DNA of 64,000 nt from Dimargaris cristalligena. Taxonomy: Eukaryota. The stretch lies in assembly GCA_003614675.1 (NCBI GenBank), contig ML002209.1, positions 1 to 64,000 of the forward strand, given 5' to 3'. A model generated the notes under the pieces. The model was given only the letters and a program-made list of their open reading frames with translations, had not been told where the DNA came from and ran no database searches. This document shows, one piece after another, positions 7,336 to 63,140 of the stretch (the stretch's first letter is position 1; each line of letters opens with the position of its first letter). The position numbers were made by a program, and so were the translations under genes.

Positions 7336-7959
7336 ATGAGACTCCATCACGTGACAACCGTTACATGTCTGATCGCAGCGTTCACTGTGGGAATGGCTAG
7401 CCCCTCGTCGTCGTCCTCGCAGCCATCCTCGACGTCGCTCGGGCAAAATGAAGCCCCGCAACAAGCCCCCAAGACCCGAAAACGCGACCATATCCGTAAT
7501 GTGGCCCACCGTTTCAAGGAAACATTTAGAACGCCCCAGGCTTCGTCGTCGTCCCAAGTGCTCCAGTCGCCTCAAGAGGTTCGGTTGCCCCAAACGGAAT
7601 TGGCCAAGTATTTCCAAGAAGCCGTCCAATACGAATCCGATTATGCCAACTGGCGAGGCATTTCCACTGCCCTCTATGAATCGGCCCTGAAAGAAGCCCT
7701 AGTCGTGGCTTTTGCGGTGGATCTAAGTGGAAACCCTTTTACGGCTACCGTGACGCCTTTAGCGATCAATACCGTCACTAATTACTACCAATTTCACGCG
7801 GGACAGGTATGGGATGTCGCGCCTTTTGTTTTTTTCGTTAACTTAAAAATTCCGGCCGAAAAGGAATTGTTGGAATACATTGTATTGGCCAATGCTTATG
7901 GTCGTCGCTTTCTCAAGTCAACTGGCGAAATCGATTGGGATTCCCAAACCACTAGTTAG
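7336..7959 (+). CDS. Orphan secreted protein, 207 aa
   Basis: GCCGCCATG start context; signal-peptide-like N-terminus MRLHHVTTVTCLIAAFTVGMA|SP; Ser/Gln-rich linker and basic KTRKR patch; intronless; no family recognised. Confidence 0.75.
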   Translation: MRLHHVTTVTCLIAAFTVGMASPSSSSSQPSSTSLGQNEAPQQAPKTRKRDHIRNVAHRFKETFRTPQASSSSQVLQSPQEVRLPQTELAKYFQEAVQYESDYANWRGISTALYESALKEALVVAFAVDLSGNPFTATVTPLAINTVTNYYQFHAGQVWDVAPFVFFVNLKIPAEKELLEYIVLANAYGRRFLKSTGEIDWDSQTTS

Positions 7960-15782: not shown

Positions 15783-16332
15783 GGTCGAGGAAGGGGGGAG
15801 TAGGAGGGGCAGAAGACAACGAAAACTAGTGATTAAGCGAAGTACGGGACTGACAAGCTAGTTGTCTGGATCGTCGACAAACACTCATTGGTCCTTCGTC
15901 AAGGCCATTAGGAGCTCCGTCCCCACCATTAATTATGATGTGTACTTAATGGGGGAAGCTAGGGCTAATTTAGCATAGACGGAGGGGTATTTAGAGATCC
16001 AATCAAGTCAGCTGACCTTATTGCTGGTCTGTGCCTTACTGGCTATATAAGAAAAAAAAGGAAATATATGCCAAGCGAAACATAGGTAAAAGTATCCCAA
16101 AGCCTAAGTCGAAGCTGTCTACGAAGGGAGCGGCATGCAAAGTACTTTTTGAAAGAACTTCCTGTGGTCTACCACAGCACAGCCTCATTACTCTCATCGT
16201 TCCATTAAGAATTGAGTTGGCCTCCTTCATTCACTGTTTCTGGTATATATCCTTCATTCAGGGCCCTCGCCACTGCTATCTGCCTTTCCGTATACTCGAG
16301 TTTTTTCCTTCGTCGTCCTCTATTCTAGCAAC

Positions 16333-20741: not shown

Positions 20742-21099
20742 GGAATTAGAGTTATTTTAGGGACGAATACGGCGCACGCATATGCTCCATGGTTGAGAGT
20801 GCCCATACAGCCACGGTACAGCAGAATCGCCAACTGAACAGGCTGTGAAATCCCAGTCAATAACGAAATAACGAATATATACCAGTGGGTCGCTCAACGC
20901 ATTGTCATAACAATCCCTTATTGGGCAAACCTGGCGAAAGACTTGGTCCCTTTTAGTTCCACTCAACTTGTGTATCCTTTAGTTTCACCCATTCCTTTGG
21001 TTTATTTCAGTTATTCGGCTGTACTTTGTTTTATAATTTGCGTTTCCCGCCCTTTTTACTTCGCACCTTAGTCTACACCCGTCGGTAAGCCAAGGCCAC

Positions 21100-38516: not shown

Positions 38517-41500
38517 ATGACGATAAACATCGCTGACCAGGCCGAACTCCAGACGAGCCCTGGGCCTTCGCATGAGGAAGTGGTCCAACTCGCCAAACTA
38601 TTGCGTAAGAAACCCGCTGTTCCCTCCTCTGCTGATGAGAGCTCCCCACCATTATCCAACACCAGGCCTGCTGTAAGTATACCTGCCATGGCCTGTCGTA
38701 TTGCCTTTCTTTTCCCAGCCTCTCGAACTCCCAATAGCCACGGAGAAGCAAAATGTAGCGTAGTTAACCCCCAAGTTTCCCTTATGTTTTATCTAATTAT
38801 ATTGCCTTTGCGGGTCCTCTTTATTTTTATATAAAATACCCCACTTACCAGACCTCCGCTATAGCCACTCTATCTTTGGAAGATGTCAATAAGCAGTTAG
38901 GTGAGTTTCAGGAGAACGAGGCCATCAGTCAGTTATTGAGTCAGGGCCGCGACCTCAAGGAACATGCCCAGGACATTGAGCGCCAATTGCGGGAAGCCGA
39001 GTTGGAGCACCTTGAGAACTATTTCCAGCAGAAGCATCGCCTCACCGAACTGGACGAACAGGTCCAGGATTGCGACTCCATCCTAAGCCATATGGAAACC
39101 CTGCTGAGTGGATTCCAGGTCAAGTTGGGCAATATTAACCAAGAGATTCGCGATTTACAGGACCAGTCCGTTTCCATGAGTGTGCGGCTAAAAAATCGTC
39201 AGCAGGTCGAGGACCAGCTAGAACGGGCCATTGACGGATTGGCCATTACCCCAGCCCTCATTACCAGTATCTGCGACCATGAAGTAAATCAGTCGTATAT
39301 CGAGCCACTGCTTGAGCTCGACCACAAAATCCGCGTGTTTCGGCATCAGTCCAGCAAGAACCGAACCATTCTAGCCCTGGCTGATACTGGTCCCGAGCTT
39401 GAGCGGCTGCGTTTAGTAGTAAGTCCAATATCCCTTATTCTCTATCTGTTATTCCAATATATCGTTATTTAAGCTATTATTATTTTTCTACAACAGGTCC
39501 AATATACCATATACTCATTTTAATTATTCTTGTACTTGCTGCACCACCTATCTTCTGATTTACTGGCTTAAGGCGGCGGCCAAGGTTCGGCATTTTCTGC
39601 TCAACAAAATCAAGTCGATTAGAACACTGGCCACCAACATTCAAATTCTACAGCGCAGCATTTTCCTAAAATACCGGGCCCTGAACCACTTTGTTATTGA
39701 ACGCCACAGCGAGACGGCCAGTGAAATCCGGGACAACTATATCTTTACCGCCCGCCTCTACTTCGCCGACCATTTCGAACGATACGCCAAGGCCCTACAG
39801 CGCCTTCAGGCCACGGCCGCCGAACGCGGGGACATGCTTGGCTACGATGAAAGTAGCAAAGCCGGGGGTATCTTCGGGGGCACTCGCCCGGCTCTAAAGG
39901 ATCGCCGCCACATCTTTGGCTTGGGCGACCGCATCCACGTGCTCACCCGACCCGAACCCCAGGTTATCATCCCCCACGTCGCTGAAGACCGCCACGAGAA
40001 GTTCACGTTTGAATTGCTCTTCCGGAGCTTCAACTTGGCCCTTATTGATAATACTACCAGTGAATACGAGTTCTTACTGCAGTTTTTTGTCTCGGAAGCC
40101 GCCCGGGCCCGGCATAGTGGAGCCGATATCGCCAAGGCTATTTTCGATCATGTGTTTGCACCAGTGTGTGCGGCTGGTACGGTAAGTGTAGCTCTATAGA
40201 TTAACGTGCCCTTCAGTATGGATAAGAGCCAGTCAAGCGAACCTCAGGTATCCTATTGCCAACGAACTCGATCTCATGGGAGGTTAAGGTCTAGATTATT
40301 TCACTAGATTCGCTAATACGGGACCACTAACCCCGCCTCTTATTAGCCCCCACTAACTCTATTGGATTCCACCCACTATATACTTGCGCCAACCATTTAC
40401 TTTTAGACCTTTACCCAATCGTTTGTGGAATCCACGTATGATGCCCTAGGCATTCTACTGTGCATTCGAATCAACCAACAACTTATCAACGAGCTGCAGC
40501 GGCGCAGAGTACCTGTTCTAGACGGCTATATGAACGCCACCAATATGCTGCTTTGGCCCAGATTCCAGACCATTATATCACTCCATATCGACAGCATCAA
40601 GAAAGTGAGCTCTGGTAATCGACCACGCCTGTCCAAAATCGATGTTCATCCTCACTTTGTAAGTTCTTTTGTATAGTAGAGCGACTTTAAAAAAGTATTG
40701 TCCGGTATTTCTGCTATGTACACTATATCGCCGCTGTGTATAGGTACTTTTATTATAGAAAATCGGAAATTCTCTCAAATGTAAAAGACCGATTATTAAT
40801 TCTGAGGTATAATATGTAACCAAATACCCCACTTTTTTTTTTGAATTATGTAGGTCAGCCGGAGGTATGCTGAATTTGTAGCATCCTTGCTCATCCTTAA
40901 CCAAGTTCCCGAGACCAACATTCTCGACCAAAGGTACGCTATTCATCTTTACCAATGTCATCCATTCACAGCGCCCTTGCATTTTTGTTACTTCTATCCA
41001 TATGGCCCACCTCAATAACTATAGCAATTATCAATCCTAATCTACTCTCCAAAAATTACATACTATTCTCTATTGAACTTCCACTATATTTTAGTGTACG
41101 CCGGCTTCGCAACGAACTCGAAGCAATGCTCTTACGCATCAGCGAGGGCTTCAATGACCGGGTGACCACCTTGATTTTTCTCATCAACAACTACGATTTG
41201 ATTCTCACGATTCTAAACGAAAACGGGTTCGAAGGGGACAGTGATGAAGAAGTCGACTATTTCGCCCGATGCAAAACGACCTGCGTTAGCGAATACGTGG
41301 AAGAGCAACTCGATACCTACTTCGGCTACCTCAAGTCCTTTGTCATCCGGGCCGAGTCGTATACTGACCTGGGTGGAGGCCACGGTGATGGGGCGGTGGG
41401 AGCAGGGGGCGATACCTCCGAAATCAGTGTGGACCAATTCGATAAAGTCATCGCCGAATTCAACGCCAATTTCCGCGGCAGTTTGGCCAATATCAATGCG

Positions 41501-41719
41501 GCCGTCATCCGAAACTTCTCCAACTTTAAAAACGGTACTCATATTTTACATAGTGTCCTGGGGCAGCTGATTCTGTACTATAACCGATTTTACCACCTTT
41601 TCGATCGTCGTTTTACCAAAAAAACGGCCGCGGGCTCTGGAGCCGGCCGGCCCAATCAGTGGCCTGTTGGTATTCAAAATGTCATGGTTGAGATCAAAAA
41701 ATACAAGTCCAACTTCTAA
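38517..41719 (+). CDS. VPS52: GARP complex subunit Vps52/Sac2, ~762 aa
   Basis: Exons 38517-38672, 38852-39418, 39573-40181, 40407-40658, 40854-40933, 41095-41719 (2289 nt); LLSGFQVKLGNINQEI, FELLFRSFNLALIDN, YDALGILLCIRI, LLWPRFQ, FLINNYDLIL, FSNFKNG, VMVEIKKYKSNF. Confidence 0.95.
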
Positions 41720-43644: not shown

Positions 43645-44850
43645 TTACTGGGGGATATCGGGCCAGGGCTTACTTAAGAGGGACAGTTGGCAATTATAGT
43701 CATCTGAGCTAACCCAGTAAGCATCCACAATCAGGTGGGCATTGTGGGCCAACTCTTGAATTCTGTCAACGGAGAATTTGACCGAATATATCACGTGAAT
43801 GCGTTCACCCATTTGCATATTGATGTAGAGGACTGGCGACTTTCCCTGACAGTTGGAAGAGTCTACAGAATCTACGGAACAACTAGGACTAGACTCATTG
43901 GCTGACCCATAGTATTCCAATCGAAGGGCCCGACAAGTGCGAACATACATCTCCACTTGGGTACACTGGGGGTTGTACCAGCAATCATACTCAAAATCGG
44001 CCAGATCAAAGAGGGGCTGGCCTAGTATGTGGTTGGCATGCGTGAGTACATTTAAAAGGAGGCTGGCATGGATTCCAGCGCTGTCGTGGTAGGCCCGGTG
44101 GATGGCACTGGGATTAGTGGGACCACTGGAACCCAGTAGAAGGGCGTCGCCTGGCTCGAGGGCAGACTGTAAGCGTAACAGAAAATCATCTAAATCCTGG
44201 GGCGTAAAATTACCCATAGAGGATCCCAGCCACCAGACAAACTTGCGGTGGTGGGATGGGAGAGTTGGTAAGTAGGCCATACCATCTTCGTAGGTGCCCC
44301 ATAATCCCACCAAATTGATATTTTGAAAGTGCCCAATCTGGGTCAGTGCTTCGACCAGGGCAGTGTGGTCTAGATCCAAAGCATAGTAGGTAAAGGAGGG
44401 GCCCAATCGGTCGAATGCCTCCAGAAGCAGGCGAGTTTTACGTAGAGCACCCGCGCCCAACTCCACTAGCACATGGCGGTCTTTGCATTTCTGCGCGATG
44501 GCATCACTCTCCTGGATTAGTATGCTGGTTTCGGAGCGGGTGATATAGTACTCTTCGGTAGAGGTTAACTGGTCAAATAGGTTTAAGCCATGGGTGTCGT
44601 AGATGAGCACGTCGGGTAGTGTACGGACGGGATCAGTGGGAGTAATATCGGGCTCGGCGGGATTGAACCCCGGAATAATGGAGGGCTGGGTCAAGCCGCG
44701 GATAATATCCTTGGCCAAGAAGTGGTCCGTGGCTAGCTTCTGTCGCCGGATATCAATGATAGTGATCGATGGCTTACCACCAACTAGACCCAGATTACAC
44801 GTTGGAAGAACCTCCTTGATCTCGGGCAGGGTTTCAAGAAAATTTAGCAT
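43645..44850 (-). CDS. Stand-alone SAM-dependent methyltransferase of the EgtD/EasF (Methyltransf_33) family, 401 aa
   Basis: LIYDTHGLNLFDQL, EYYITRSE, LVELGAGALRKTRLLL, YYALDL, GLWGTYEDG, WLGSSMGNF, AYHDSAG, SVKF; intronless; no sulfoxide-synthase domain. Confidence 0.92.
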   Translation of the reverse strand: MLNFLETLPEIKEVLPTCNLGLVGGKPSITIIDIRRQKLATDHFLAKDIIRGLTQPSIIPGFNPAEPDITPTDPVRTLPDVLIYDTHGLNLFDQLTSTEEYYITRSETSILIQESDAIAQKCKDRHVLVELGAGALRKTRLLLEAFDRLGPSFTYYALDLDHTALVEALTQIGHFQNINLVGLWGTYEDGMAYLPTLPSHHRKFVWWLGSSMGNFTPQDLDDFLLRLQSALEPGDALLLGSSGPTNPSAIHRAYHDSAGIHASLLLNVLTHANHILGQPLFDLADFEYDCWYNPQCTQVEMYVRTCRALRLEYYGSANESSPSCSVDSVDSSNCQGKSPVLYINMQMGERIHVIYSVKFSVDRIQELAHNAHLIVDAYWVSSDDYNCQLSLLSKPWPDIPQ

Positions 44851-46720
44851 TTTAAAATGGCCAAAAGTAGTATTAAAACAAAAATAGCATTGAATAGCAC
44901 CAGTGTCGGGCGATTTTTATGTGTGGCAGGTAAGGAAGCCAAGCTCGTGGGACTAGGTGTATTTAAATACATCAGAAGAGTACTAGGAATAAAAATATAT
45001 ATATTAAAACGCGGTTGTATATGCGAATCCAGTCAGTTAGGTATGGACTGGACTGTATGTATGAACGACAAAACGCCCAGATAGAAGCTGTGTATTAGGA
45101 CAGCAGCTAATTGCAATGATTGGGGATCGACGGATATACTTGGCCAAATATCCCCAATCTACTCGACAGATTGTCAATATGACCAAACTTATATTTCTGT
45201 AAGGGTTTAATAAAAATAAATGGGTCTATATATTAATAAAAATATTTGACATCATTGTTTTGTGTTTGTACGCCATTATATCCTACCATGTCGACAATGT
45301 AACGGTTATAACCGTGTTTATACCGCATATGTTAAATCTAGTCAGGCATTGAAAAGGAATAATTTTATTTGCTGGAATGGTTAATAATAATGAGATCCCC
45401 CGCCAATCCCTCTATAACCTGTAGTGTTGCAGCCGGCTCAGCCTAGTCCATAGAAGGGGAGAGGGTGGTGTTCAAGACATTTATCAATATTAACTATTAC
45501 ATTTATTATTCTACGTCAACTACATGGCCAATATTCTTGTTAAGTTTTAACGCGATATTAACAACCACTCATTACAATGATTCTAGTTGGCCCGACCACT
45601 TAAAGCTAAGCCAATTCAGCCGTACATCTTTTAGTTAATTCGCTTTTTATTACTTGTCTTTATCTCCATGATCACCGCAAATACCACCCCTGGTATACTG
45701 ATTTAAACTATCTCCAGTGCACTGCCCCTAAACACAGAATATTATAGTAGTCCATACAATTGTCTATGGCAATACAGAACCATTGGCTAAGATCGCTTAA
45801 ATTTAATCAAAGCCATTACAGCTACACCTGGCACCAGGGTCCTATATAGTACAGGCTTGGCTGCCATTAATGAGTTCTATCTAGTTTTATTTTGCGTTTT
45901 TTTCTTACAGGTGCGTCACTAAATACTTGCCATATACATTAAAACAATAGGATGCCGGATAAATTTAAAGCAAAGGGCCCGATAGACCTAGGTCAATGGC
46001 CCCTAGTTTGGCTGTTATCATTATCATTGCGAAGTTGATTATAAACTACTACCATATTAAAACTCGTACGAAAAAAAATAGGTATGGAAAAAATTGGTAC
46101 CACTTGATAGCACTGGTTAACAGAATAAAGCCCATATTGGCGACGGGAAGGTACCTTTTTCGAGTCCTCCCTCTTTCCCCTTGGTTCTTCCCAAATTGGA
46201 AGACCCCGTCTATAACCATTAGCTTTGTGTTTGGCCGGCCGGAAGAATACACATCCACCTTCTACTATTTTCTGGGACTCATAATTGATAACAGGGTTTC
46301 TAAGTCTCTCGTTAGGGTTTTTTACCAAACGACCCCGTTCCTGGCAGTCTATACATCACTAAATATTTTCGGATATTCGGATTTGGATGATAGACAACTT
46401 AAAATAGTGATTCGATGGGAGTAGCATTTACGCCTCCAACCATAACCCATTGTCCATCCCAGTCGCCAGAAAGGTGATAGTTAGCGGCTTAGAAGCTATC
46501 GGCATTAGGGCATTTAGTAAATCGTAAAGGTGGGAAAAAATACAAGTAGTATTAGTACAAAAGGCCGGAAACAATGTATGGGTTGGAAGAGAAAGGATAT
46601 CAATACAATGACTGAAGCCCACGGGCGATAAGACAGTAAAACTGTTTGGAGTTTTCTCACAACAGCTCAATTAGACCTTAGAGTTTGACCCCATGCAATT
46701 AATTTATAATTATTTTTTAT

Positions 46721-48595
46721 TTAGAAATCCGGTGGAACCTCAATCTGGTCAAGTAGAAGGTCAGGCATTTTGACAAACTGGTTAGAATAGCCGTAGCGGC
46801 GGTATCCAGCATAGGTGACATGTCGTACTTGGTCGTAGAATTTGGGGTTCAACGCATGCGAATCAAAGTCCCAGAGAGATTGGTAATGCGGCCAGGGATC
46901 CATATTAGTCAAACCATTTCGTTCATGGGGACGAAACTCCGGCAGAAGAACTGCAATTCCCATTTGGGGGATTCCGTCATCCGTGAGGCGCAATTGATCA
47001 ATATATTTAAAACAGTGACCCAAGTTCCAGGTCAGACTTTGGTAGAGTTGGCTGTGCCCTAATTTGGCACAGCCCAGGACTTGGTTTAGAAAGACCGCAC
47101 CGCGGGGCAGACCAATCTCACGCATCACCCCGACTAACGAACATTTCACCGACAGGGCCGTGGTCGGCTCGTCATTAAACGAGCCGATGATATAGGAGTC
47201 GGGTAAAGAGGTTAACAGCTTCTCCTGACGGGCCACGGCCGCCAGGACGATGGCTAGTCGCTGAAATGTGCCAATGTCGTCCACATCTTGGATAAGCCTA
47301 CTGCGCTTATCAGCAACGTGCCCGAGATTCTCCACAAAGTACTTTAAATTATCGTAGCGTTGGGTCATAGCTAGGCGGGCCATCATAATAGCCGCTGTAT
47401 TATAAAACAGTCGCGTAAATACTTGGGAGGGGTCCTGATCGTCGGAGGGTTCCGGAACTTGGCCCATTAATTCTCGTAGCCGCCCGTGTTTTCCTGACGA
47501 CCCGGGGTATTGACCCATCGCCCATTCGCGCTGTGCAAGCTCAACAAAAACCGGGTTAGCAAGGGTGCCCAGCAACTTCAAGACACCCTGCCCATCCGAT
47601 TGTACGTCCACCAGGGTCAGGAGAGGCAATCTATGCGCTAGTACCGACGGGAGCATTTCATTGGGATTCACAAAGCCCCACACACCCTTCTGGAAATAGG
47701 GATTTTGGCGGTTATTTTTTAAGAAAGTGTAAAGGTGGCGAAACCGGGAGAGCTCGACAAAGTAACGGTGTTCTACGGCGTCGTCTTTTAATGACTTGAT
47801 CTCGGTACCCCAGTCACCGTTGGTGTAAATAAATAAACTGCCGGCGAATTGGTGGTAAAGAAGCCCCCACCAGTCCTCCAGGGTCCCCCGATTCCCGCAT
47901 GAGGATAGGTTATCGTCAGATTTACGCCAGGGCAGCTGGCGCCAGGATCGAGTCTTGGCTCGAGCCCCATCAATGGACCAACTGTCCGTCTTTTCCAGCA
48001 TAATTCTACATTGCAAATCCCGGTAAGTAGCCTGTGTTTCTCCGGAATTAGTGATATAAATATATTTCAAAAGAGCAGGGTTAGTGAATCAAAGTATAGA
48101 GAAACACACTTTATACCAAATAGTCCCGCTGTATATGTTTTTTTGCAGGCGTTCGGGACCCACCTTCACTTTTTCGATTGGGTGGCTTGCCGCATAACTC
48201 GTGATCAGTTTCGATGTTTTCAATAGTTCGAGCCGGGTTTGTCGGTCATAGTCGAAGTCTAAGATTTGTTGAATTATTTCACCGGGTAACCCTGCTAGTC
48301 TATTCGTAGGTTCTTTCTCGGCTGCAACTTTCGGTCGTACGGTGGTCGGTGGCGACTTACTTGATGAAGATGGCCTGGTGGAGGCTGCTTCCATTTGAGG
48401 ATTAACAAGTGGTACTACGCCACCCTTATTCGCGATGGTCCGTTGAGTGGTGAGGCAGTTGTTCGGAAGTTCGAGCTTGCTAGTAGCAGGTATACTCAAA
48501 ATAGCACCAGGAGTGGCCAGAATGCCTTCCACATTACAACTCAGAGCAAGGCAGAATAGAAGCAAGCCCAAATAGGCGAATTTAGGACGAGACAT
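46721..48595 (-). CDS. Secreted protein with an F-box-like motif and an unknown C-terminal domain, 598 aa
   Basis: Exon 1 48595-48110; 78-nt intron 48109-48032 (GTGTGT...CACTAAC...CACTAAT...CAG, phase 0); exon 2 48031-46721; signal peptide MSRPKFAYLGLLLFCLALSCNVEG; LAGLPGEIIQQILDF...LELLKTSK. Confidence 0.72.
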
Positions 48596-51500
48596 GGCGA
48601 TAAGGCTGAAATAAAAGGCGATGCAGACAACTGGTTGGCTATTGAAAAATATATACAGTCAGTTTAGAGGAAAACGATGACCAAGTATATCAAACCCAAT
48701 TGAGGCCAAGTCCTCTCACTATAGGGAATACAAGTATCAAGGGATGAAAACTGCCCCAATTATAAAATACCGGATTATGGTATTAGACACTAAATAACCG
48801 ATAGTAGAATAGCGCATAGTCTCTATATATATATATGTGTAAAAATATCCCCTAGAATTTGATGGGAACCCCCATTTCAAACATGGGGAGTGATATACAT
48901 TTTGGAGTGGTCGTCAGTTGGCCATATACCTCCACCCGCTTAGATGCTTCAGCCACTGTTGTAGTGGCATTTCAGTGGACTGTCTTCACCCACCTGTTCA
49001 CAAAGGCAGTGAGAAATTCAACCGGATGATACATTGAGGCAAATGTAACCAATGGTACAACCTCCCTATTCAGTAGCAGAGTATTGGTGATAAACCCCAT
49101 GACCAGGCCCATACGCTTGCTTAGGTGACTTGTTTGGACAAGCTATACACAATAGTGCAGTGTAAATAGTAATATAATTCGGTACATAAAGTAGCGTTGG
49201 GTATTTCTGGTTTAAATATACCTTGCCTCAAAAAGCCACCGAAACGCTCAACTATCTGACAACTATCAGTACGGCAAATAAATGTTAGGTGGTAATTGGC
49301 ACTAATATTGGGGTTGTTAGAACTATTATAAGACACAAATATGACTGTTGATTTTAAGCGGAATTATTGTACCCGGACCCTCGGTGGAATTAGTAATTAG
49401 CACCAAGCTATCCTTCGACAGAGTCTCTAGGATGATATTAACGGGCATTATCATCCACAACTTTTGCGGCCCAAGTCATCAATGGTACTTATATTAACAA
49501 AAGCGATCTAACCAACCTTCAAGTAGAATTAATATTCATATGAGAAGTACACGAATGTGATGAGGGGGAAGATGAGGATCTTTTGATGAAACGACGACGG
49601 TGATTAAAATATAATCGTTGGGTTTAATATTCAAGAGCGTCGAGCTGAACTGTTGAGTACTTGTGTAACTTCACTCGGACAATATAGGCCCAGCTATCCG
49701 CGGTCTAGGCGCTTGCTCTAGTAGAGGCGGCGACACAGCGACACGAAAGGTAGAAGTATGACTTGAGTGAACCATGATGGCCCATCAATTGACTTCGCCG
49801 CTGTGGTGCCGCATGGCTTGGCAGCGGACATCAGCAATATCCTCTCAGGATACACTCCTTCTGTATTTTGCTGCAGGGTGTAGGGAAGCGTGAAATCGAC
49901 ATACGAATCTGACATATGACTCGTCTATTCCACCAACCGTCCATTATAACTGAGTTTAATGCTGCTTAACCCGAGCAATATATTATTATATTCAACTAAA
50001 TTATTTTTTGGATTATTTAATATATTTGGAGATTTATAATGAGGAAATATAGCACTTGACCCTCTGGCAGGACTATTGTCATCGTTTATTCCCGTTTAAG
50101 CCAACTGCGTGACTACTTCTGTTCCAAAATGGAAGCAGCCACTTTTTGATAGTATTATTTAGGGAAGTTGCTATGTAATCAGTGCTATGTTCTGATCAGC
50201 CCGGAAACATACACCATTAGCCAAGGTATCATTTGAGTGGCAAAGTGGTGAAAAAAATTACTCTGGACAGCTCCCAGTGTATAATGCAACTGTGTGCCAA
50301 TACCCAGTGGTCTAAATTATTTGTCTTCACTGTCTGATGGTCCCTTATTATTAATACTTTGACCAATACTTGTAATTGTGCTGTGATAAACGAACCAGTT
50401 GTATGGCAACAGTCCATACGGCTACGACTACAGTTATACTATACCATATTGGATCGGGGCTGACGATTTCTCCCCTCGTCATGCAATCTGCAACAAAGGA
50501 TCTGCTGTGTCGAATTTGGAATCAGGATATCTCAAACCATTATGGCCAAAAAATAGGACAAACCTTTTACACCTTCTAGCACAACGCTTTCGGCATTTGA
50601 ACCTAATAAAATGGCAGCAGTGGTTGCCTTGCCCATTTGGCATGCATAATAATAAATCAATGACGTCTGGGCTCAATTACGGGAAGGTGAGTGTATCCGA
50701 TAAATGTACTAATAATATGCGGATAAGTGAACGTTTTGGAAAAATATAGTACAGACATGGCCAAGTAACTATTGAAATACACTTGTGGGTGGGGAACGGC
50801 CCCTATCCCCTTGTCTACCACGGGAACCCCCTTACATCAAATCATGTTTAAAATCGGACAGCCGGCACCTTTCGTAATACGCCATACACGACTGCCACCG
50901 TAAGCCACTGAACTGTCGCTTACATTTGGGTGTACGACCTGTGGTGAGACCGTTTTACCACTTGTTTCCCACCAGTAAGACTCTATAATTATCCGACGAG
51001 GTATTTTTTTTTCACATCCGGCTATCTGGTAGTTAAGGTCCGCCGTGCAAATTATGACCAAAAGGTCGCCTGCCTTAGATTCACTTTAAATAAAACTCTA
51101 CTTCATCTAAGGTCCGCCGCGTATACCATGGGCAACCCTGGTGAGGCCCAATTTAATGGAGTGGCGGGAAACTGTGCCAAACTCTGTAAAGAAGTATTTG
51201 GGCTAGACGAATCTTTGAAAATAGCCGACGAAAACACCCACGTCAACTAAATAAAAATAATAAAACGAGGGATATTAACATAGTGTGACCAATCAACTGG
51301 TCGCTTTTATTTTCGAATTAGGGGATTTTATGTTTCGGGTGCAGCTGCACCTGGCCCTTTCCACGTCCCAAGGGGCTATTCGTATGCCAATTATGAGTCT
51401 ACGTAGACATCCAGCGAATAAAACCACTGATAATAGGATTTTATGGATTGAAATATTGGTTCTAACCTGCGTACTAGTACAATTTCTTTAAAGACACAGT

Positions 51501-51650
51501 AAGCCGCGAGTTTTGTTGAGGCCCCAATCTACGGCCGGCGATTGGGCTAGGCCAAACTAAATAGCACCGGCCGCTTGAAGGGTCCGGGATACGGTCATTG
51601 GATACGACTTGCAGGTGGGTCGCCGCTTTATTTGACGATACAAAACGTAA

Positions 51651-52461
51651 CTAAGCCGCCGGGGATGCCTGCACCCATTCCCACTTGATCGGCATCCGCC
51701 CCTTATCCAAAGAAAACAGCTTTTGGAAGGCGGCCGAGCTTAGGTCGATGTCACCTTTCTTACATTCGGGGCACTTATCGGCAACCTGGATGTTAATGGA
51801 CTGGTTTTTATCGTTATAGACTTTTATCTGACGTTTACACAGGGAGTTCTTGTTGGGGTTACCGTTAGGGGTAGCTGGGTCAAAATCCGGAGCGTTCTGT
51901 AGCAAATTGAATAGACAGGATCAGGCGGTTGGGTAAGTTTTTTTCAAAAGAAAATAATTAATGAAAAGGACTATCCAAAAGATTCCAATAATTGGTAAGC
52001 AAGTCTAATTTTCCAAGTGAGCAGTGGTTAAGGCACATCGGACCTTATTTGCTGACTTAGCAGGGGGTCTAGGTACCGACATAAGGCAGTATCCACCCAC
52101 ATTGGGTAACGATTAGCCGGTTGAACTTGATAAATGTGTAAGGTGTAATTTACAGTGAATTAGGGAAATATAGTTTTATATTGAAACTTACGAGTGCACC
52201 AATCATATCCGTATCTTTGCTCACAAATCCACACGCGCCGAGCCCGGCCTTATACCAAGTCGCTTCGCCTCGCTGGTAGAGTTTGTGGACTTGTTTTTTG
52301 ACTTCGTTGATGGTATCGGACACGGCGACCTTGATATCTGATTTTATGGCGGCAACGGTAGTCGGAATGACGTTAGAGGGAGTACTAGGGGGATTGGCTA
52401 AAGTCGGGACGACCAGCGACCCGACGACAATGCAAATAATATAGTCCTGCGGTAGTCGCAT
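51651..52461 (-). CDS. Secreted RlpA-like double-psi beta-barrel (expansin/loosenin/barwin-like) protein, 171 aa
   Basis: Exons 52461-52192, 51896-51651; signal peptide; GEATWYKAGLGACG...IGAL|N...NPNKNSLCKRQI...VADKCPECKKGDIDLSSAAF...GRMPIKWEW. Confidence 0.92.
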
Positions 52462-54494
52462 TGTTTTACAGATGGGTTTGTGGATAGGGGGGGGACAGGC
52501 TGGGTAACTAAAATCAGCTGAATGGGAAGGAATTTAGCCAAATTATGCAGAGCTGCAGCACGGGTTTGAATAAATAGTGAACTAAAGGTACACCAAAAGT
52601 AAAGAGGGGGGATTACAAAGTCAATAATATATGGGTGTGGGAAGTCCTTAGGTGGGGCCAATATCTATATTTATATATATAGGTATCATTTGGCTGGATA
52701 GAGGCACGTCCGCTAATAGTAATTCAAAAAAGAAATTGTTCGAGTCTGCCTAACCTCGATAGTGGGCTCTTTGGATGGTCGGGAGGATGCGGTGTCTAAT
52801 CGTTCATTGAAGCCCACCTCCCCCAGCCCTAGACAGACAGGCTTAAACCCCTATGTTCCCTTTCATCGATTGACTGGTCGAGCCAGGTCGTCCATGAATT
52901 CTCACTCTACCAAAACGAGTAATCTGTACTCTTTCCAACGCCGCTAAGCTAGGACAACTAATACAGGCCTATATAGAGAAGGAAACTCCTGTGGGTGACT
53001 ATGATTGAGTAATTCCTGGCTTACGATGCTTTGCCTTGGTCAGTCTTCCCATCTGGCGGTTCGACTTGATTGCCGTCGCCCAAAGTATACGGCGGCATCT
53101 GTCCAAATTGTATAATAAATTTAGGCTAGGAAAGTTCATTCCATGCACCGCTTAAATGTAATGGCTCCTTCGCCACCTTTTTCTTTTTTTGCGACGTAGT
53201 ATGGGGTATGGAGAAGACTCGATTTGGCTGTGCAACGAATAAGTCGTTGGATGGGACGGGTATTACGAGGTAAACATAAATAGACCGCCTATTTGACCAT
53301 ACCCATATCAGTAAACAACGTATACAGCTGGGTAGAGTTTTACCCGCTATAAATTGAGGTTGACCGGCTCCGGTTCAACCCCACCGCGTATGCCGTCTAC
53401 TTGGCAAAAAGTGAGGTATTTTTCAAGGGTCGGCCCTGACATTACAATTCTCCTCGCTAGCACTCCCATTTAGTATTAAAAGTCCGGTTGCTTTTTATCT
53501 ATGAAATAGCCTTACATTGATTTTTATTATTTTACCAATGTACTACATAGACCGGTTTCAATAATTAAAAGGCGGAGCATTGGTCCAATCGGGCCATTAA
53601 AAAAAACCACCTGCGGCCGCCACTTCGAAACTTGTGAGATGTACGATAATTGACCAATTATAGTTCAGTCTATTCGGTAAGGATCGGGGGTGGACACGGG
53701 CAACAATAATACGCGCAAAACCTATAGAGGCCCAACAACAGGCGCTGACTTGGCTGCGCTGACCGCTGCCCGCCCTACAGGCACGAAATCAGGTGGTGGT
53801 ACTGTACAACCCATGCCGCAGGTGGCCGCCGTTGAGTACCGCCTATAGGAGGCCTAACTTCGCCACTTTGGCCCTAAAGTGCCAAGAAATGAATGCAAGG
53901 TAGAGGCGCCCATGCTAACGGGAAACTCTACTTTACAATGCGAAGTGTGGAGAGCTCTGGCACAGAGGCCATCTCTCCCTCAGCTGACTTGGCTGTGCTA
54001 CACCCAACCCCCCCCCCCTCCTATAATAAATTTCACTAAACTGACTGCGAATTCCCCAAATGTTCTTGGGGATATCCAATGGTGCATTTGAGTGAATGGC
54101 CCGATTCCTTCAACGGATGCGAGACTGTATTACTCGACAACGGCAGCAGTGGTATCGTCATTCAGGCAAATTGGCTCTACATGTGCCACAGGTGGATTCT
54201 CTCACTCGTTGATTGAACAGGCACGCAGGGTCTCTTGCGCGGTGCCCAAATTAAACCCTGAGCTCAAGTATGGTGGATAGTCGAGGCGATCTATCTGAAG
54301 GTATATATAATAGAGCCATCCCCCACTCTCGATTGTGAACCATACCGCTCGGCCATTAACTCACAATTGCCCTCCCCAGCCCATTTCCTCTATTACCCCC
54401 TTACTCTACCCATTTCGCTGCCCAGCCTTCCGATTGCTTTCATTGCTTCAATACCCATACACCCGACCCGCTCCATCTTGTCTCGCCACCCATC

Positions 54495-55054
54495 ATGTAC
54501 TTCACCTCAGCATTTTTTCTCGTGATTCTCGGCGCCGGTGTTCCGTTTGTCCCCCAAAGCCACGCCTCCCCCATCGAAACCCATACTGAATCAGTCTACT
54601 GCGACCGGATCATCAATGCCGAGGCAGCCGCGAGTTTCCCGAGTTCTTTCAAGCTTGCCATGCCCCGCATGTCGTCGTCACCCCTCACTACCCAGGAAAA
54701 GGCCTTCAAACTGATCAACAAGACGTTAGCGGAAGCCTATGCCTACCCAAACAAATTGCTCCCGCAGTCGAAACATCTCTCCATTGAGCCCAAGTCGGGC
54801 GATGACAGTTACAGCAAGTACGCTCAGTTTGCCTTGGCCAAGAGACTCGATGATTTTTGGCCCATTTTCTTCGACTCGGACCAAAGCTGGAGTTATGCGC
54901 GAAAGAATATTTTCTTTTTTTTAACGAGCCCAAACTTGTGGTCTCTTTCAATGTGAACAAGCCTGTCGAGCAGGCGGCCGCGGACATATTGAGATTATGC
55001 TACCCCCCTAACTCTGCATTTCAGTCTGCAGGTGCCAGTGCCCAGGGCATGTAA
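54495..55054 (+). CDS. Orphan secreted protein: 153 aa as sequenced (stop 54956), ~186 aa with a -1 shift at the T8 run
   Basis: Signal peptide MYFTSAFFLVILGAGVPFVPQSHA|SP; TATATAA at 54304; T8 at 54915-54922, after which the -1 frame reads NEPKLVVSFNVNKPVEQAAADILRLCYPP to 55054. Confidence 0.65.
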
Positions 55055-55790
55055 AGAGCACAGCAATTATTGCTGGTATTTGTATTTGCAGGTAATGCAG
55101 TTTTTCATTTTTTAAAAAAGGGCCGTTTCTGAGTAGAACATCACCCCCTAGTGAGTAATAGTTCCTTTTAGACCAATAAATACCCACAGCATTTACTTAT
55201 TTGAACAATTATCAGATAGTATACCTAAATGAGGGGGGAGTGGGTGTGCCTAGTTTATTGATAGCGGGTGCCGGATTGGTGAAACAATAGGGCGGATACC
55301 TCCTCCGTGTTGGGCTACGGCTGATTAATTCACTGCCAATTGACCCAAGCCACCAATTGTGTAGGCAATATATCTAATGTGCGGGTGTGTCCCCCCGCCC
55401 CGTTGGCATTAAAACGAGTAAAGGGGAAGAAACCCCTACCGTCAATTGAATGGGCTCACTTGCTATTCTTTCGAAACATTTGTACCGCAACGGACTGTAC
55501 TGCTGGGGAATTTTCCAACACATCGGCTGCCTGGCTGCCCTACGCAATCGGTTGTTAATATTGAGGTGCAACCACCATGTACACGCCCCTGACCTTTGTT
55601 TAAACCCCAGGGTTAAATTTGCTCCATTATTCCTAACCAACACCTGCCCGGGGCGGGAACTAAATCTGGCCCCGGGGTTCGCCCAATATCCCTTTACTTA
55701 TTCACCCCCATGCGTGTCCGCCCCATGCCTCTCTGTGACTTATAATTTTATCCTCTTCCCCCGCCCCCTTGTGAACTGAAGGATTCCCTA

Positions 55791-57287
55791 ATGTCTAGAC
55801 ACCCCACCGCTGACTCTCCTTCGGCCCCATTCACCCGGCTCTACCTTTGGTGGCACCACATTAGCACCCAGGTCCAGCTCTGGCTATTCACCCTCGCATA
55901 TCCAACCGGCGGTCTTCCTGCCGTACACGCTTCGTCGCCATTCTCCCTGACCTGGCTGGGCTTCCGCATTTACAAAGGTCTCAAATGGGGTCTACGCCAT
56001 ACCATCTACCGGGGCCAACCGGAATTGGAACGTCTGCTTCGGCTTCCTCCAATTAGCGCACCGGCAAACGGTCCCATGTTTCTAGGAACCGAGCACGCAT
56101 GGGCCAGCGGGTTCCCACCTCCGCAGCCTTCGGCTTGGCTATGGCGGGTTCAGCAGTGCTTGACCTATTCCCAGACGCTACAGGGGCCGTGTCGACTTAT
56201 TGCGGCCACCACGGCCGGGGAACCCGACTGGCCCGAATTGACCCAGGCGGTCCTGCAGGCCAAGGGCATCCCGTTGGGGACGACGGGACCAGGCTTTACT
56301 GACTCCTACGCTGTGGATGCCCCACTCATCAGCCCACCGACCCCCACTGAAGACGTAAAGGTTCGCCGACTAGCGGAGGCCCTGCGCACCATATGGCAGG
56401 TCAATATGCAGAACCGGAACTTGGCCCAGCGTAAACGGACCCCAGTCATGTCCACCAATGCCGAGCAGAGGCGTCAACTGGCCCAGTTTCGGGAGGCCCT
56501 GGCATCGGTCGGACGGTCCTCCTCCCCACCAACGGGCACGGCATCCACCAATGACCCGGCGGAAGGCTGGCAGGCCCTAGGCTTCCAGAGTCGGGCGGAC
56601 CCCACGACCGATTTCCGGGGTATGGGCCAGCTGGGTTTAGACGCACTGGTGTACTATACGCAACACCATTCGGACTCGGCCCAATTGGTACTCAAGTGTA
56701 GTCGGGACCATCCCACGGCCTGGTACTCCTTTGCAATCGTTGGGATTAATCTCGCCGCCCTCGCCTGGCGGTTGTACCAATCCCCGGAATTCCAATACTA
56801 TGTCTACACCACCAGCTTGCCCATTGAAACCGTCTACTTCGAGTTCTTCAGCTATCTGTTCCATATGTTCAACGACTTTTGGTTTACGCCGCAGGAATTA
56901 AACCACCTATCCAGTCAGGGAATTTCTTCCCCCCTGGCCCTTTTATCTGTATCGCCACCTAAACACACCTTGCAGCTGATTCCCCTATCCCTAAGGTATC
57001 GCCATTTTCAGCGCCAGGGTTCGGTATCATCCATCTCCCAAATCAAATTCACTGATACTAAGCCTAACTGGTCCCTTCAGCCTCCATACACCATCATGGA
57101 CTTTGAATCGGTGATTCCGGATTTCGAGGCCATCATCAGCCGCCAACTCTACTATCGTCAAGTTCAGCCGTTTATCCAACACCATCCTTTTGCTCTATCT
57201 GATACAGCAGATACAGAGGATTTGTCGGATTCAAGTGACCTAGATTCAGGTTCGGTAGCCGCTTCTGGGCATAAAAAGGATCAATAA
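55791..57287 (+). CDS. ELMO/CED-12 domain (ELMOD, ARF-family GAP-like) protein, 498 aa
   Basis: WQALGFQSRADPTTDFRGMGQLGL, WYSFAIVGINL, FNDFW...TIMDF. Confidence 0.92.
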   Translation: MSRHPTADSPSAPFTRLYLWWHHISTQVQLWLFTLAYPTGGLPAVHASSPFSLTWLGFRIYKGLKWGLRHTIYRGQPELERLLRLPPISAPANGPMFLGTEHAWASGFPPPQPSAWLWRVQQCLTYSQTLQGPCRLIAATTAGEPDWPELTQAVLQAKGIPLGTTGPGFTDSYAVDAPLISPPTPTEDVKVRRLAEALRTIWQVNMQNRNLAQRKRTPVMSTNAEQRRQLAQFREALASVGRSSSPPTGTASTNDPAEGWQALGFQSRADPTTDFRGMGQLGLDALVYYTQHHSDSAQLVLKCSRDHPTAWYSFAIVGINLAALAWRLYQSPEFQYYVYTTSLPIETVYFEFFSYLFHMFNDFWFTPQELNHLSSQGISSPLALLSVSPPKHTLQLIPLSLRYRHFQRQGSVSSISQIKFTDTKPNWSLQPPYTIMDFESVIPDFEAIISRQLYYRQVQPFIQHHPFALSDTADTEDLSDSSDLDSGSVAASGHKKDQ

Positions 57288-59338: not shown

Positions 59339-61078
59339 TATCTATATTTTTGTAGTGCAGTTTGTATTGCATATACGTCTGTATGACGGATATATCCAAC
59401 TGGACATTGTAATTGCACTTCGGCTACTTTTATAATAAATCCGATTAGCCATAACCGCAAACCATCCCGAATGAATTTGCTATTTCGCCGTAGGGGTAGC
59501 CCCTCTAGTATTCTATGCAACGGGGGATTTTTGAACAATGGCCAGCGCACCTAGGCAAAGGACTAAAGCAGGTGCGAGGCTTCGGTTCGTGAATTTCACC
59601 ATCTAAGGCAAGGAAAATGATTTGTCCAAGCCCATGGACTGGAGGGGGGTCGGGTTAATCTTAGCTAAACTAGCCAGCGGATGTATCCGGCGCTACCTGC
59701 GGTAATGGATCCACCTTTTTGCTTTTGTATAGTTTCCCTATATGAAAAGATGAACCAAATGAGCGCGGCGTTCGGTCTCGCTGTTTTCCTTCAATGGAAC
59801 ATAACGGTTTCCTCCTGTTCACTAATATCTTCTATTCGCGAGATGTGGTTGGGCTGTTGATCGACAAGGGAAGGGGAGGGGGGCGGAGGAGAGAGGAAGT
59901 GAATAGCCGGCTTTCGCCTATTACCAAATGTAAACGGCCGTAATTTCTTTTACTCGTTCCATTTAAAACTCAGCCAGTGCGCTCCTCTTCTCGACAGTTG
60001 GTTGGTCGGTGGATATTGGGAATGGGCTGTACGACCGGTATTGGCGAGTCGCCGCTCAATTGAGAATTACCGAAAGCAACCTTCGCCTTCCGTTGCACTC
60101 GTTCATTTTCCCCCTTTCCCACTCCCTTGTTTTTATGTTGGCTTCGCTTTTACTTGACCAAGGCATATTTCGCCCTTACATACCTATGCGACAAACCTTA
60201 CTTGCTCTTCAAATCCCCCCTTTCCTCCACTAAACTAACCCTCGGCAGTGACCAAAGGGAAAGCAGTATATTTTCCCTCGGTCGGTTACTCCCCAATGGC
60301 CGTTTAAGGGGGAATTAGCCCTAACATGTGGACGGCAAGGGTTCTACTTTCGGTAGTCTTGTCGTGCTACCTCCCTTCGTACAGACTCTGTGGGCTGGTG
60401 GTCTATATGAATGAAGGCACAGGCGCAGGTAAGTGAACTAGTTCGCCCCTCCTCCTCAATGAGTTAGGTATTTATATCCCGTCGGCGCCACAAATCGCTG
60501 CAATATTCCCCCCCCTCCTACTCACTATTCCTCTCTTGTAAACGAATATTCACACCTGGACAGTGCCATACGAAGTTTCATCTCCTATAGGGTTTTTATG
60601 TATTTATTGAGTATTAATTATCTATTAGGCCATATCTCAGTCTATATCAAAACCATTTATTCGCTGCTAGATTAGAACAGTTTGTATGTAACGATTTGAG
60701 GGACTCATTATATGTACACCTACACCTTTTTATTTACTATTTTAACGACCAGCTTTTTTTTATTATTTTACATAGAGATACAGGGCGGTTATTAACGATA
60801 CTGTGGGGAGTATGGCCCTTAGCGATGCCATTGACGTCGCATTATAGTCTTGCTCATTAATTGCAATATTTTGGGAATATTCTTCAACATACTATTTTCC
60901 TGGTACAGTAACTAACACGTCTTATTTCACCCTTTATTTTGCACCATCGCCTACTCGTGCACTTCTACTGTTTTCGTTTGATTTTTATTATTTCGGGTGG
61001 GCATCTAAATTAGTACATGGATAACTAAATTACTGCGCCATTTCCAGTCCTATTTTAATATTAGTCAGTCCCCCTCCC

Positions 61079-61118
<40 letters not shown>
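61079..61118. repeat. (CA)6(TA)14 microsatellite ending 9 nt before the 7TM-RGS ATG
   Basis: Read directly. Confidence 0.9.
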
Positions 61119-61124
<6 letters not shown>

Positions 61125-61127
61125 ACC

Positions 61128-63140
61128 ATGCCGCCCGTACTCACCGACCACGGGTTCAACGAAATCCGGCACTTGGTGTACCTCCCCATCCTCTTCAGCT
61201 ACACCGTTTTTCACATCACCACCTCCACCCTGTATTACTTCCGGGTTCTCCCCGGCACCAAAATGCCGCGGTACATCACCATCATTAACCATACCGCGGC
61301 CCTAGGCCTCGGTATCACCATGTGTCTCAGCAATGCCTACCGTTTCCAATTCTCCTGCAGTATTAACCTCTGGGCCTACTATTTGTTCGTGCTGTCGTGG
61401 TGGATTACGTTTTTAGCGCGGACCGCCCATTTGAGTTTCCTGGCCCAGGCGAGTCACGCGAAACTGCACGTACCGGGCATTCGCACCCATCGGGAGGAGG
61501 CCGGCCCGGCGGCGGCGATGGAGGAGGCGTTCCGGTGTGCGGGACCGGCGGACGGAAAGGGGAAGGGGAAAGGCAGTGGTAATGAAAACGGGTACGGATA
61601 CGGAAAGACGGGAGCGCAACCCCGTCCGGCCGGCTTCCACCGGGTCCTCACGGCATTGGCCCGACGGTACACCTGGTCCCGTCTCCGCAAACTGTTGGCC
61701 GAACCGTCGCTCCTCCGCATCACGGGGGTCGCCACACTCATCGTCGTGATTTACTGTACCGTGGTCCAACTCGCCTCCCCGCATTTTCGGGCTAGTCCCG
61801 ACGGCGACGTGGGCTGTGGCCCCGTGGCCGAATTCCTGCCCTTATACCTCGCCCTGGGTTTCCTGGTCCTGGTCGTGTGTCCGTTTATTGTGTATTGCTT
61901 ACGCCCCATTCGGGACGCTTACGGTTTGAAACGGGACTTGACCATCACGGTGGTGGTGTGTTTCGTGGGGTTTTTGCTGTTCATGTTCATGGATATGGCC
62001 TTGGACCATTACGTGGAATACTTCGGAGGAAGTGTGTTTCTATTGTTGGGGTTCTTTATTATTCAAGTAACGACCGTGGTGATGCCCGTCCTGCAAACGT
62101 TCCGGCAAGGTAATGTTGGTGGGCCCCTTCCTCCGGCCCCTTCAGCAGCAGCAGCAGCAACAACGGCGGTGGCGTCAAAGGGAGGACCCCCCACCCCTAC
62201 TTTACCCCCCTTGCCACTGCCGTTTTCACCCTTATCGCATCCATCGGAATGGTTCACCCGCCATCGGACCTCCCCGCGTCCATACACTTGGGACGATTTC
62301 CTCCTAGTCGTGGGTTCCACGGAACGGTGCGGCCAACTGAAGCAGTGGGCCACCATGTCGTTTTGTAATGAATTGGTCATGTTTCTCGAAGACTACCAAC
62401 GTTTCAAAATGCACATTTTCCGGGTGCTGCAACTACCCATCCTTCCCGCCGCCACTACGGTGCCCGAGTCGATTACCGTTTCCCTGGGTACCCTAAATGG
62501 CGGAAAAGGGAATACGGGTGGTGGGAGTGGGGGTAGTAGTAGTAGTAGTAGTAGTAGTAGACGGTCCGAAGACGACCTTTGGCCCTCGTCCCGACCTTCC
62601 ACCAGTAATGATCCCCTATCGCTCATGGAACTACCCACCCCGGCCTACCAAACCATTCTCGAATCCCTCCAAGCCAATCAGACGTGGCTAAACGACCCCT
62701 CCATGACCCTGCCCAACTTATCCCAGGTCACCCTGAAGATGCCGGTGACTGCAACGATAACGACAAACTTGTCGTCGAAAACCTCCTCCCCAGCTAGTTC
62801 ACTCGCCGAAAAACTGGGCAGCGATGCTTTGAATTACCGTGCATTATCCCCCTCGCATTCCTCGACATCCTTATCCCGTATGCTGACTACCAATGAAGAT
62901 GGCCCGACAATGGTCCCGTTGGACTGTCAGGTTATGGCCCGCAATCTATTTCGGCGGTATATGGTAAGCACCAGCGATATGGTTCTCAATATTACGGGAA
63001 GCCTCCAGGACGCCATTACCGCCGAAATCAATGCAGAGAGATTTAGCGTCGAGATATTCGACCAAGCCCATCAGGAAGTCCTTCGGATGCTCTACCTTAA
63101 CGTTTTCCCAAAATATTGGAATAGCCCCACTGGTAACTAG
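61128..63140 (+). CDS. 7TM-RGS fusion protein (GprK/AtRGS1-like architecture), 670 aa
   Basis: Seven hydrophobic segments with IRDAYGLKRDL loop; RGS halves FLLVVGSTERCGQLKQWATMSFCNELVMFLEDYQRFK and ARNLFRRYMVSTSDMVLNIT...IFDQAHQEVLRMLYLNVFPKYW. Confidence 0.88.
   Translation: MPPVLTDHGFNEIRHLVYLPILFSYTVFHITTSTLYYFRVLPGTKMPRYITIINHTAALGLGITMCLSNAYRFQFSCSINLWAYYLFVLSWWITFLARTAHLSFLAQASHAKLHVPGIRTHREEAGPAAAMEEAFRCAGPADGKGKGKGSGNENGYGYGKTGAQPRPAGFHRVLTALARRYTWSRLRKLLAEPSLLRITGVATLIVVIYCTVVQLASPHFRASPDGDVGCGPVAEFLPLYLALGFLVLVVCPFIVYCLRPIRDAYGLKRDLTITVVVCFVGFLLFMFMDMALDHYVEYFGGSVFLLLGFFIIQVTTVVMPVLQTFRQGNVGGPLPPAPSAAAAATTAVASKGGPPTPTLPPLPLPFSPLSHPSEWFTRHRTSPRPYTWDDFLLVVGSTERCGQLKQWATMSFCNELVMFLEDYQRFKMHIFRVLQLPILPAATTVPESITVSLGTLNGGKGNTGGGSGGSSSSSSSSRRSEDDLWPSSRPSTSNDPLSLMELPTPAYQTILESLQANQTWLNDPSMTLPNLSQVTLKMPVTATITTNLSSKTSSPASSLAEKLGSDALNYRALSPSHSSTSLSRMLTTNEDGPTMVPLDCQVMARNLFRRYMVSTSDMVLNITGSLQDAITAEINAERFSVEIFDQAHQEVLRMLYLNVFPKYWNSPTGN

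Follow-up and report, generated by a model that had tools for sequence, protein, structure and literature searches.

F-box proteins work with cytosolic or nuclear Skp1, and among bacteria Agrobacterium VirF is an effector of this kind. The closest precedent for the gene described here is SSGP-71 of the Hessian fly (Mayetiola destructor), for which Zhao et al. (2015) is the primary paper. In the portions covered of two articles (PMC7330099, PMC4617103), SSGP-71 is presented as a large secreted family with an N-terminal F-box and C-terminal LRR, and binding of wheat Skp1-like proteins is reported; the second also names RipG/GALA of Ralstonia as bacterial F-box effectors. A preliminary description of our locus had offered bacterial precedents only, and these accounts amend it, with SSGP-71 as a known eukaryotic family combining signal peptide and F-box. 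As far as those portions describe it, SSGP-71 resembles the family presented here, from the fungus Dimargaris cristalligena, in belonging to a eukaryotic parasite, in being a secreted family with an N-terminal F-box, and in having a C-terminal domain proposed to select targets in the host. By the same accounts, the Hessian fly is an insect on wheat and its proteins end in LRR, whereas in Dimargaris a fungus lives on fungi and the C-terminal domain is an unrelated helical one; Skp1 binding is experimental in the former and a prediction from a co-fold in the latter. Compared by description, both have a signal peptide and a lineage-specific expansion, but with no LRR found by Pfam in exon 2 or the family proteins, the Dimargaris family is not a member of SSGP-71.

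The bacterial effectors (RipG/GALA, AnkB and VirF) share with the role proposed for this family the mimicry of an F-box to recruit host SCF. Their route into the host is injection through a type III or IV system, and their further domains are LRR or ankyrin, whereas the Dimargaris proteins have an ER signal peptide, a predicted intron and no known repeat domain, and do not belong among them. In canonical cytosolic F-box proteins such as Cdc4, beta-TrCP, FBXL2 and FBXL17, a three-helix motif of around 45 residues precedes a large C-terminal domain, an order matched here as far as the model of paralog P0003 shows, but they have no signal peptide and bear WD40, LRR or other known domains. In the parts covered of the respective papers, expanded signal-peptide RING families with a proposed action on the host ubiquitin system are described in Nematocida displodere (NemLGF2; PMC4928854), a microsporidian and a close relative of fungi, and in phylloxera (SPRING proteins; PMC6892190). 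As described there, they share with the Dimargaris family the lineage-specific expansion, the signal peptide and a ubiquitin-ligase module, but use RING, which recruits E2, rather than an F-box, and their hosts are animals or plants.

According to the portions covered, a 2021 survey of Ascomycota describes it as unclear whether F-box domains are linked to pathogenicity in eukaryotes (PMC8146833), and a comparative study in which F-box does not occur reports that no orthologous gene marks mycoparasitism across its taxa (PMC6784888). The part covered of the main text of a 2026 survey of mycoparasite effector candidates (PMC13188720) contains none of the words 'Dimargaris', 'ubiquitin', 'SCF' or 'F-box'. 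Among the literature matches listed, there was no account of this family or of any fungal signal-peptide F-box family, and supplements could name its genes within predicted secretomes. The haustorial mycoparasite that the preliminary description had guessed at from the letters proved an apt choice: Dimargaritales, in the relevant part of PMC9866270, parasitise other fungi by an appressorium and a biotrophic haustorium, and D. cristalligena does so by a haustorium. With a probability of roughly one half, we propose that the gene product, a member of an expanded family, is a secreted adaptor that recruits the SCF ligase of the host mould.

The gene and its family

The gene lies on the minus strand of the 64,000-nt stretch of D. 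cristalligena DNA analysed here (the window), with its ATG at 48595 and a stop codon ending at 46721. Both open reading frames from which it had originally been assembled, 48089-48595 and 46721-48070, were found on that strand. The intron first proposed between them (48032-48109, minus strand) has 78 nt, GT..AG ends and two CTRAY branch-like motifs, its GC content is 33% against 48% and 51% in the adjoining exons, and it leaves an in-frame product of 598 aa. All 22 in-frame single-intron GT..AG models of the region and the deposited protein RKP40439.1 (23 in all) were ranked on a profile of 21 paralogs, leaving out the gene under study. The best score, 400.6 bits, was obtained with the donor at 48163 and the acceptor at 48032 (product of 580 aa), while the model with donor 48109 ranked third (393.5 bits) and RKP40439.1 ranked 22nd (368.5 bits). 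Donor 48163 is shared with RKP40439.1, and with it the F-box-type motif runs into the next helix with no insertion relative to most paralogs. Given a margin of 7 bits over 48109, and a GC content of 44%, intermediate between intron and exons, in the 54 nt that separate the two donors, we consider 48163 the probable true donor, and 580 aa the probable length, but with only fair confidence. The initial junction keeps its reading frames, its in-frame GT-AG intron, its branch-like motifs and its acceptor, which is common to both models, whereas its donor is, by the paralog profile, probably 54 nt (18 aa) off. In the preferred model, exon 1 (48164-48595, minus strand) comprises 144 codons, the predicted intron (48032-48163, minus strand) has 132 nt with GTGGGT..CAG ends and CTRAY motifs 53 and 20 nt from its 3' end, and exon 2 (46721-48031, minus strand), to which exon 1 would be joined by splicing, encodes about 436 aa of a mostly helical family domain.

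A family profile was searched against 1.84 billion representatives at the 50% cluster level (cut-off E<=0.001), a set that covers prokaryotes in part. This resulted in 37 cluster representatives, one of them the counterpart of the gene in a second assembly; 18 of the other 36 clusters were looked up, and all 18 consisted of D. cristalligena hypothetical proteins. These figures derive from the deposited proteins of two assemblies and may count fragments of one gene separately. A signal-peptide-like start was recognised by eye in at least one member of 18 of the 36 paralog clusters, 17 of which pass a strict rule; the other 18 begin inside the protein or without such a start, and in 17 of these only the representative was examined. 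The F-box-type motif is found at the same place in 15 paralog clusters, and 14 of them also have the signal-peptide-like N-terminus, so that the paralogs combining both features, which had been anticipated from the single gene, do exist. One motif-bearing cluster (P0026/P0050) is annotated to start at the motif, with no signal peptide, and four signal-peptide members have no motif. The recurrence of the motif is not a product of the query, because the best-scoring stretch of most carriers lies in the C-terminal domain. In two word-index searches, both insensitive, residues 88-162 matched none of 53 candidates at E<=10, and the family alignment matched only paralog P0003 among 7,999.

A tree was built from the C-terminal portions of 22 proteins; it is rooted at the midpoint and is no proof of the order of gains or losses. 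Carriers of the motif fall to either side of its deepest split. Six of the 21 paralogs on the tree lack the motif, and five changes are needed, at least four of them forced by well-supported branches. An old motif with several losses would account for this pattern, as would faulty gene models: either the C-terminal domain can persist without the motif, or the motif-less models are wrong. One member, P0043 (RKP33881.1), carries the UniRef name 'Cytochrome P450', and its last 110 residues or so are probably a fused P450 fragment resulting from a gene-model error. Judged from sequence, this is a real, expanded and apparently undescribed family of secreted-type proteins with a divergent F-box in a fungus-parasitising fungus.

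Inspection of open reading frames revealed no tandem paralogs in the window; the flanks (44900-51600) showed no notable repeats or transposon-like ends. On one side, 43645-44916 (minus strand) is a single-ORF histidine-specific methyltransferase (PF10017, E 2.6e-76), which we take to be EgtD-like, with no ergothioneine domain adjoining in the same frame. On the other, 3 kb upstream of the F-box gene, the spliced gene at 51651-52533 (minus strand) encodes a DPBB_1 domain (E 5.7e-9) behind a signal-peptide-like start, and its product is presumably a secreted wall protein of the expansin/loosenin type. Orphan proteins of secreted appearance abound in the window: signal-peptide-like starts with no significant Pfam family were also seen at 7192-7959 (plus strand), where a weak RXLR match (E 0.099) is probably due to chance, 25983-28100 (minus strand) and 54360-54956 (plus strand). 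A GPCR-RGS fusion of 690 aa is encoded at 61065-63140 (plus strand): its N-terminal part is of seven-helix type (7tm_3, under the cut-off), and the RGS domain at its C-terminus passes the cut-off. Housekeeping neighbours include a PPR/TPR protein (12477-15857, minus strand), a CLPTM1 family protein (21037-23160, plus strand), Vps52 (38768-41719, plus strand) and an ELMO/CED-12 domain protein (55746-57287, plus strand).

The F-box-type motif and the domain behind it

The divergent F-box-type motif is encoded at 48176-48301 (minus strand), corresponding to residues 99-140. It opens with LAGLP at residue 100. Many F-boxes end in a Trp that is missing from the family consensus, LPxELxxxII...RxxLxxTSK. 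Positions P13 and L33 are invariant in all 16 of the 16 aligned stretches and E15 is nearly so. Mean identity to 14 paralogs, picked for carrying the motif, reached 30.8% in the motif, against 4.6% in the linker that precedes it and 25.0% in the C-terminal domain, making it the best-conserved segment of the protein among carriers. On a profile built from the 15 paralog motifs, the copy in this gene scored 44.3 bits, compared with a maximum of 6.3 in 200 shuffles. When each of the 16 motif members was held out in turn, scores lay between 25 and 47 bits, whereas 200 shuffles of each yielded no more than 9.4, although the scores are partly raised by close pairs helping each other. The motif exceeds chance and is homologous across the family.

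Neither Pfam F-box (PF00646) nor F-box-like (PF12937) matched the gene product or its motif at E<=10, and an F-box match at E<=1 was absent from 35 of the 37 full-length family proteins scanned and from all of 8 further members. PF00646 was matched at E<=10 by five of the 16 motif stretches (best E 1.3e-5), and one paralog, P0036, exceeded the Pfam gathering score (22.0 versus 20.5), the sole protein of the 37 to do so. A UniRef name including "F-box domain-containing" is attached to a member in 7 of the 18 clusters looked up. In the ESM Atlas, the top matches of residues 90-162 were F-box clusters at 0.93; the first two shared 122 and 156 features, below the 170 typical of same-family matches, a scale that is uncalibrated for partial proteins. 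Sequence searches of the PDB gave two weak matches with the motif alone, nothing relevant among them, and 12 matches with the motif profile, none to F-box proteins. The F-box that had been read from the letters of this gene holds as a real, family-wide and F-box-like motif, but not as one that Pfam recognises in this copy, and we consider an F-box origin very likely.

Structural evidence comes from an AlphaFold2 model of paralog P0003, about 32% identical to the gene product, built with a 44-row family alignment (pLDDT 72, pTM 0.76). The three helices of its motif span residues 96-106, 112-118 and 120 onward, the third continuing into a long main-domain helix (residues 120-151). When the model was compared with 48,161 solved chains, F-box protein entries made up 9 of the best 50, aligned from residues 86-89 (Cyclin F in 9cb3 being counted as an F-box protein). 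Matches confined to residues 86-145 were F-box entries without exception (6/6 among the best 50), namely 5ibk, 6w66, 9o04, 9xzj, 6o60 and 5k35, with Z 4.3-6.0, rmsd 2.4-3.0 and 41-57 residues aligned; the last of these is the F-box of Legionella AnkB, which the P0003 motif overlays with Z 4.3, rmsd 3.0 and 47 aligned. Values of Z below 8 are in the range that the tool calls common, and the result pertains to P0003 rather than to the motif of the gene itself, but the same identity recurring among the matches would be hard to get by chance. By computation, then, an F-box-type fold is seen in the P0003 model, at modest Z.

For a co-fold, residues 92-144 were paired with a fungal-like Skp1 from a metagenome contig, identified by Pfam Skp1, which stood in for host Skp1. 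The score was 0.59, against 0.02 for the best of three controls, with contact agreement between runs of at least 93% and a partner pLDDT of at least 66. In a microbial benchmark, 51 of 78 solved pairs and 2 of 108 mismatched ones attained the co-fold mark, and in a eukaryote benchmark it was attained by 39 of 65 solved pairs that had no earlier complex of similar kind and by 2 of 126 unrelated ones; passes at 0.60 or below comprise only 5 of the 78 solved pairs, but all 4 mismatches that passed. Because Skp1-F-box complexes have already been solved, the pass may reflect likeness to them rather than binding by the copy in this gene. The co-folding with Skp1 suggested in the preliminary description gave a score above controls, albeit with a stand-in partner and with this ambiguity, and lends weak support to the motif binding Skp1.

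These results bear on the alternative that survives best, though we think it rather unlikely: that the family is secreted but its F-box-derived motif no longer binds Skp1 and has been kept as a structural cap or delivery leader, with all activity residing in the C-terminal domain. The divergence from Pfam profiles, the repeated absence of the motif among paralogs and the continuity of its third helix with the main domain would all be in line with such a change of function, but they have to be set against the conservation of the motif among carriers, down to its invariant and near-invariant positions, and against the co-fold, weak but above controls.

The C-terminal domain extends over some 430 aa, mostly helical, with about 25% identity to paralogs over residues 201-520. 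It had been noted as a helical domain with no recognised relative, and this description was confirmed, with no Pfam match in exon 2 and mostly long helices in the P0003 model. Pfam scans of exon 2 and the 37 family proteins gave no LRR family, no ankyrin domain was found in the family, and no known substrate-binding repeat family was matched by Pfam on the 37 proteins, by Foldseek or by the fold search of the P0003 model. A PDB search with the family profile returned three weak matches only, and Foldseek gave no match at E<=0.001 against the PDB and viral models. Structural matches of the P0003 main domain were generic helical repeats (best Z 6.2), as they were in a second look with VIA (best Z 5.4), and in the ESM Atlas the best score for exon 2 was 0.80, with a blank result. 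Among the columns conserved in at least 70% of rows, hydrophobic residues, Pro, Gly and Cys predominate, alongside a single Asp and a single Arg; two Cys are conserved (34 of 44 and 34 of 43 rows). A catalytic role was considered; the conserved columns are mainly structural and do not suggest an active site, although there may be one. The domain may possibly represent a new fold. Its placement behind the F-box suggests that it could act as a substrate receptor, in which case a new substrate-receptor fold might be involved.

An improbable variant would have the protein act in the host as a Skp1 decoy, occupying Skp1 or blocking SCF assembly and so damping turnover or defence with no delivery of substrate. 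The motif and co-fold evidence fits it equally, as does a C-terminal domain matching none of the known substrate-binding repeat families; on the other hand, a simple sponge would presumably not need 15 or more diverged paralogs with a conserved domain of 400 aa.

The N-terminus and the deposited models

A predicted cleavable signal peptide is encoded at 48524-48595 (minus strand), around residues 1-24, with a positive n-region, a short hydrophobic core and (-3,-1) sites at residues 20, 24, 27 and 30, so that the exact cleavage position is not fixed. Net charge is +2 and the best 10-residue hydropathy is 2.95. On a crude ad hoc rule combining hydropathy, charge and a (-3,-1) site, the gene and 17 of 18 N-complete paralogs passed, against 18 of 178 internal-Met controls, which bears out the signal-peptide anatomy first reported for the gene. 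The Ser/Thr/Pro linker reported between signal peptide and motif was likewise found, as a variable stretch at residues 25-98 (48302-48523, minus strand), and its equivalent in the P0003 model has pLDDT below 50.

The possibility that the N-terminus is instead an uncleaved, cytosol-facing anchor, or that translation begins downstream, with the protein serving as an F-box adaptor for the parasite's own SCF, has little in its favour beyond the best 19-residue hydropathy window of the gene product (2.0) and the cluster annotated from the motif onwards. According to the positive-inside rule, N-terminal charge sets membrane orientation, and 17 of the 18 N-complete paralogs have an n-region of neutral or positive charge, which would place the F-box on the lumenal side; (-3,-1) sites are present in all 18, and the best 19-residue window falls below 1.6 in 13 of them. 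We regard this arrangement as very unlikely.

Exon 2 has 97% identity to KAJ1990017.1 and agrees fully with the C-terminal part of RKP40439.1; the two proteins come from D. cristalligena. RKP40439.1 has 546 aa and departs twice from the first gene model, by using donor 48163 and by dropping 48259-48360 (minus strand), an in-frame stretch of 102 nt that carries the first half of the F-box-type motif. This stretch begins with a consensus donor, GTAAGT at 48360, and true alternative splicing is possible on that account. We nevertheless consider it probably coding, because it has 48% GC, contains no CTRAY motif and is conserved in paralogs, which retain the homologous residues; leaving it out lowers the score of the model on the paralog profile by 32 bits. 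RKP40439.1 probably splices the motif out wrongly, and this probable error in a deposited gene model hides the F-box. A single-sequence fold of the deposited protein was uninformative (pLDDT 32). Between the two assemblies, P0001 and exon 2 in the window differ at 11 of 426 residues (97.4% identity, the second lowest among nine pairs ranging from 96.8 to 100%), possibly a hint of faster change in this gene. The weakest alternative, an extracellular role in the wall or at the interface of the haustorium, unconnected with ubiquitin, where the transcript might lack the motif as RKP40439.1 does, could appeal to the consensus donor and to a possible disulfide between the two conserved Cys, as in extracellular proteins, but is most unlikely in view of the composition and profile score of the skipped stretch and of its retention in 15 paralog clusters.

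Possible role in the parasitised mould

Computation establishes the architecture of the protein and its family, and the retention of both signal peptide and motif across 14 diverged paralogs makes action in another cell the simplest reading; the haustorium supplies that other cell. For a secreted adaptor recruiting host SCF, we infer secretion, host entry, substrate binding and ubiquitination as follows. The signal peptide would route the protein of about 580 aa through the secretory pathway of the parasite, and would at the same time separate the F-box from Skp1 of the parasite. Once released at the haustorium, the protein would enter the cytoplasm of the host mould by some route, a step that is wholly postulated. 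The divergent F-box would then dock on host Skp1, and the helical C-terminal domain would keep a protein of the host in place for ubiquitination by the SCF ligase of the host, with the choice of substrate differing from paralog to paralog.

A fuller version can be put forward at slightly less than even odds: D. cristalligena might possess some 15 to 35 secreted SCF adaptors with a novel substrate-binding fold, delivered across the haustorium and causing the degradation of chosen proteins of the host mould, with the signal peptide doubling as self-protection where parasite and host Skp1 are near-identical. If so, this would be the first fungal F-box effector family, and the first case of a fungus reprogramming the ubiquitin system of another fungus.

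How a biotrophic mycoparasite controls a living fungal host with no harm to itself is largely an open question. The family offers a concrete candidate for intracellular effectors in a fungus-fungus interaction, one in which the F-box would provide a built-in marker of host entry, since cytosolic Skp1 is required for its function, and it suggests that the parasite delivers F-box proteins into its fungal host to redirect protein disposal.
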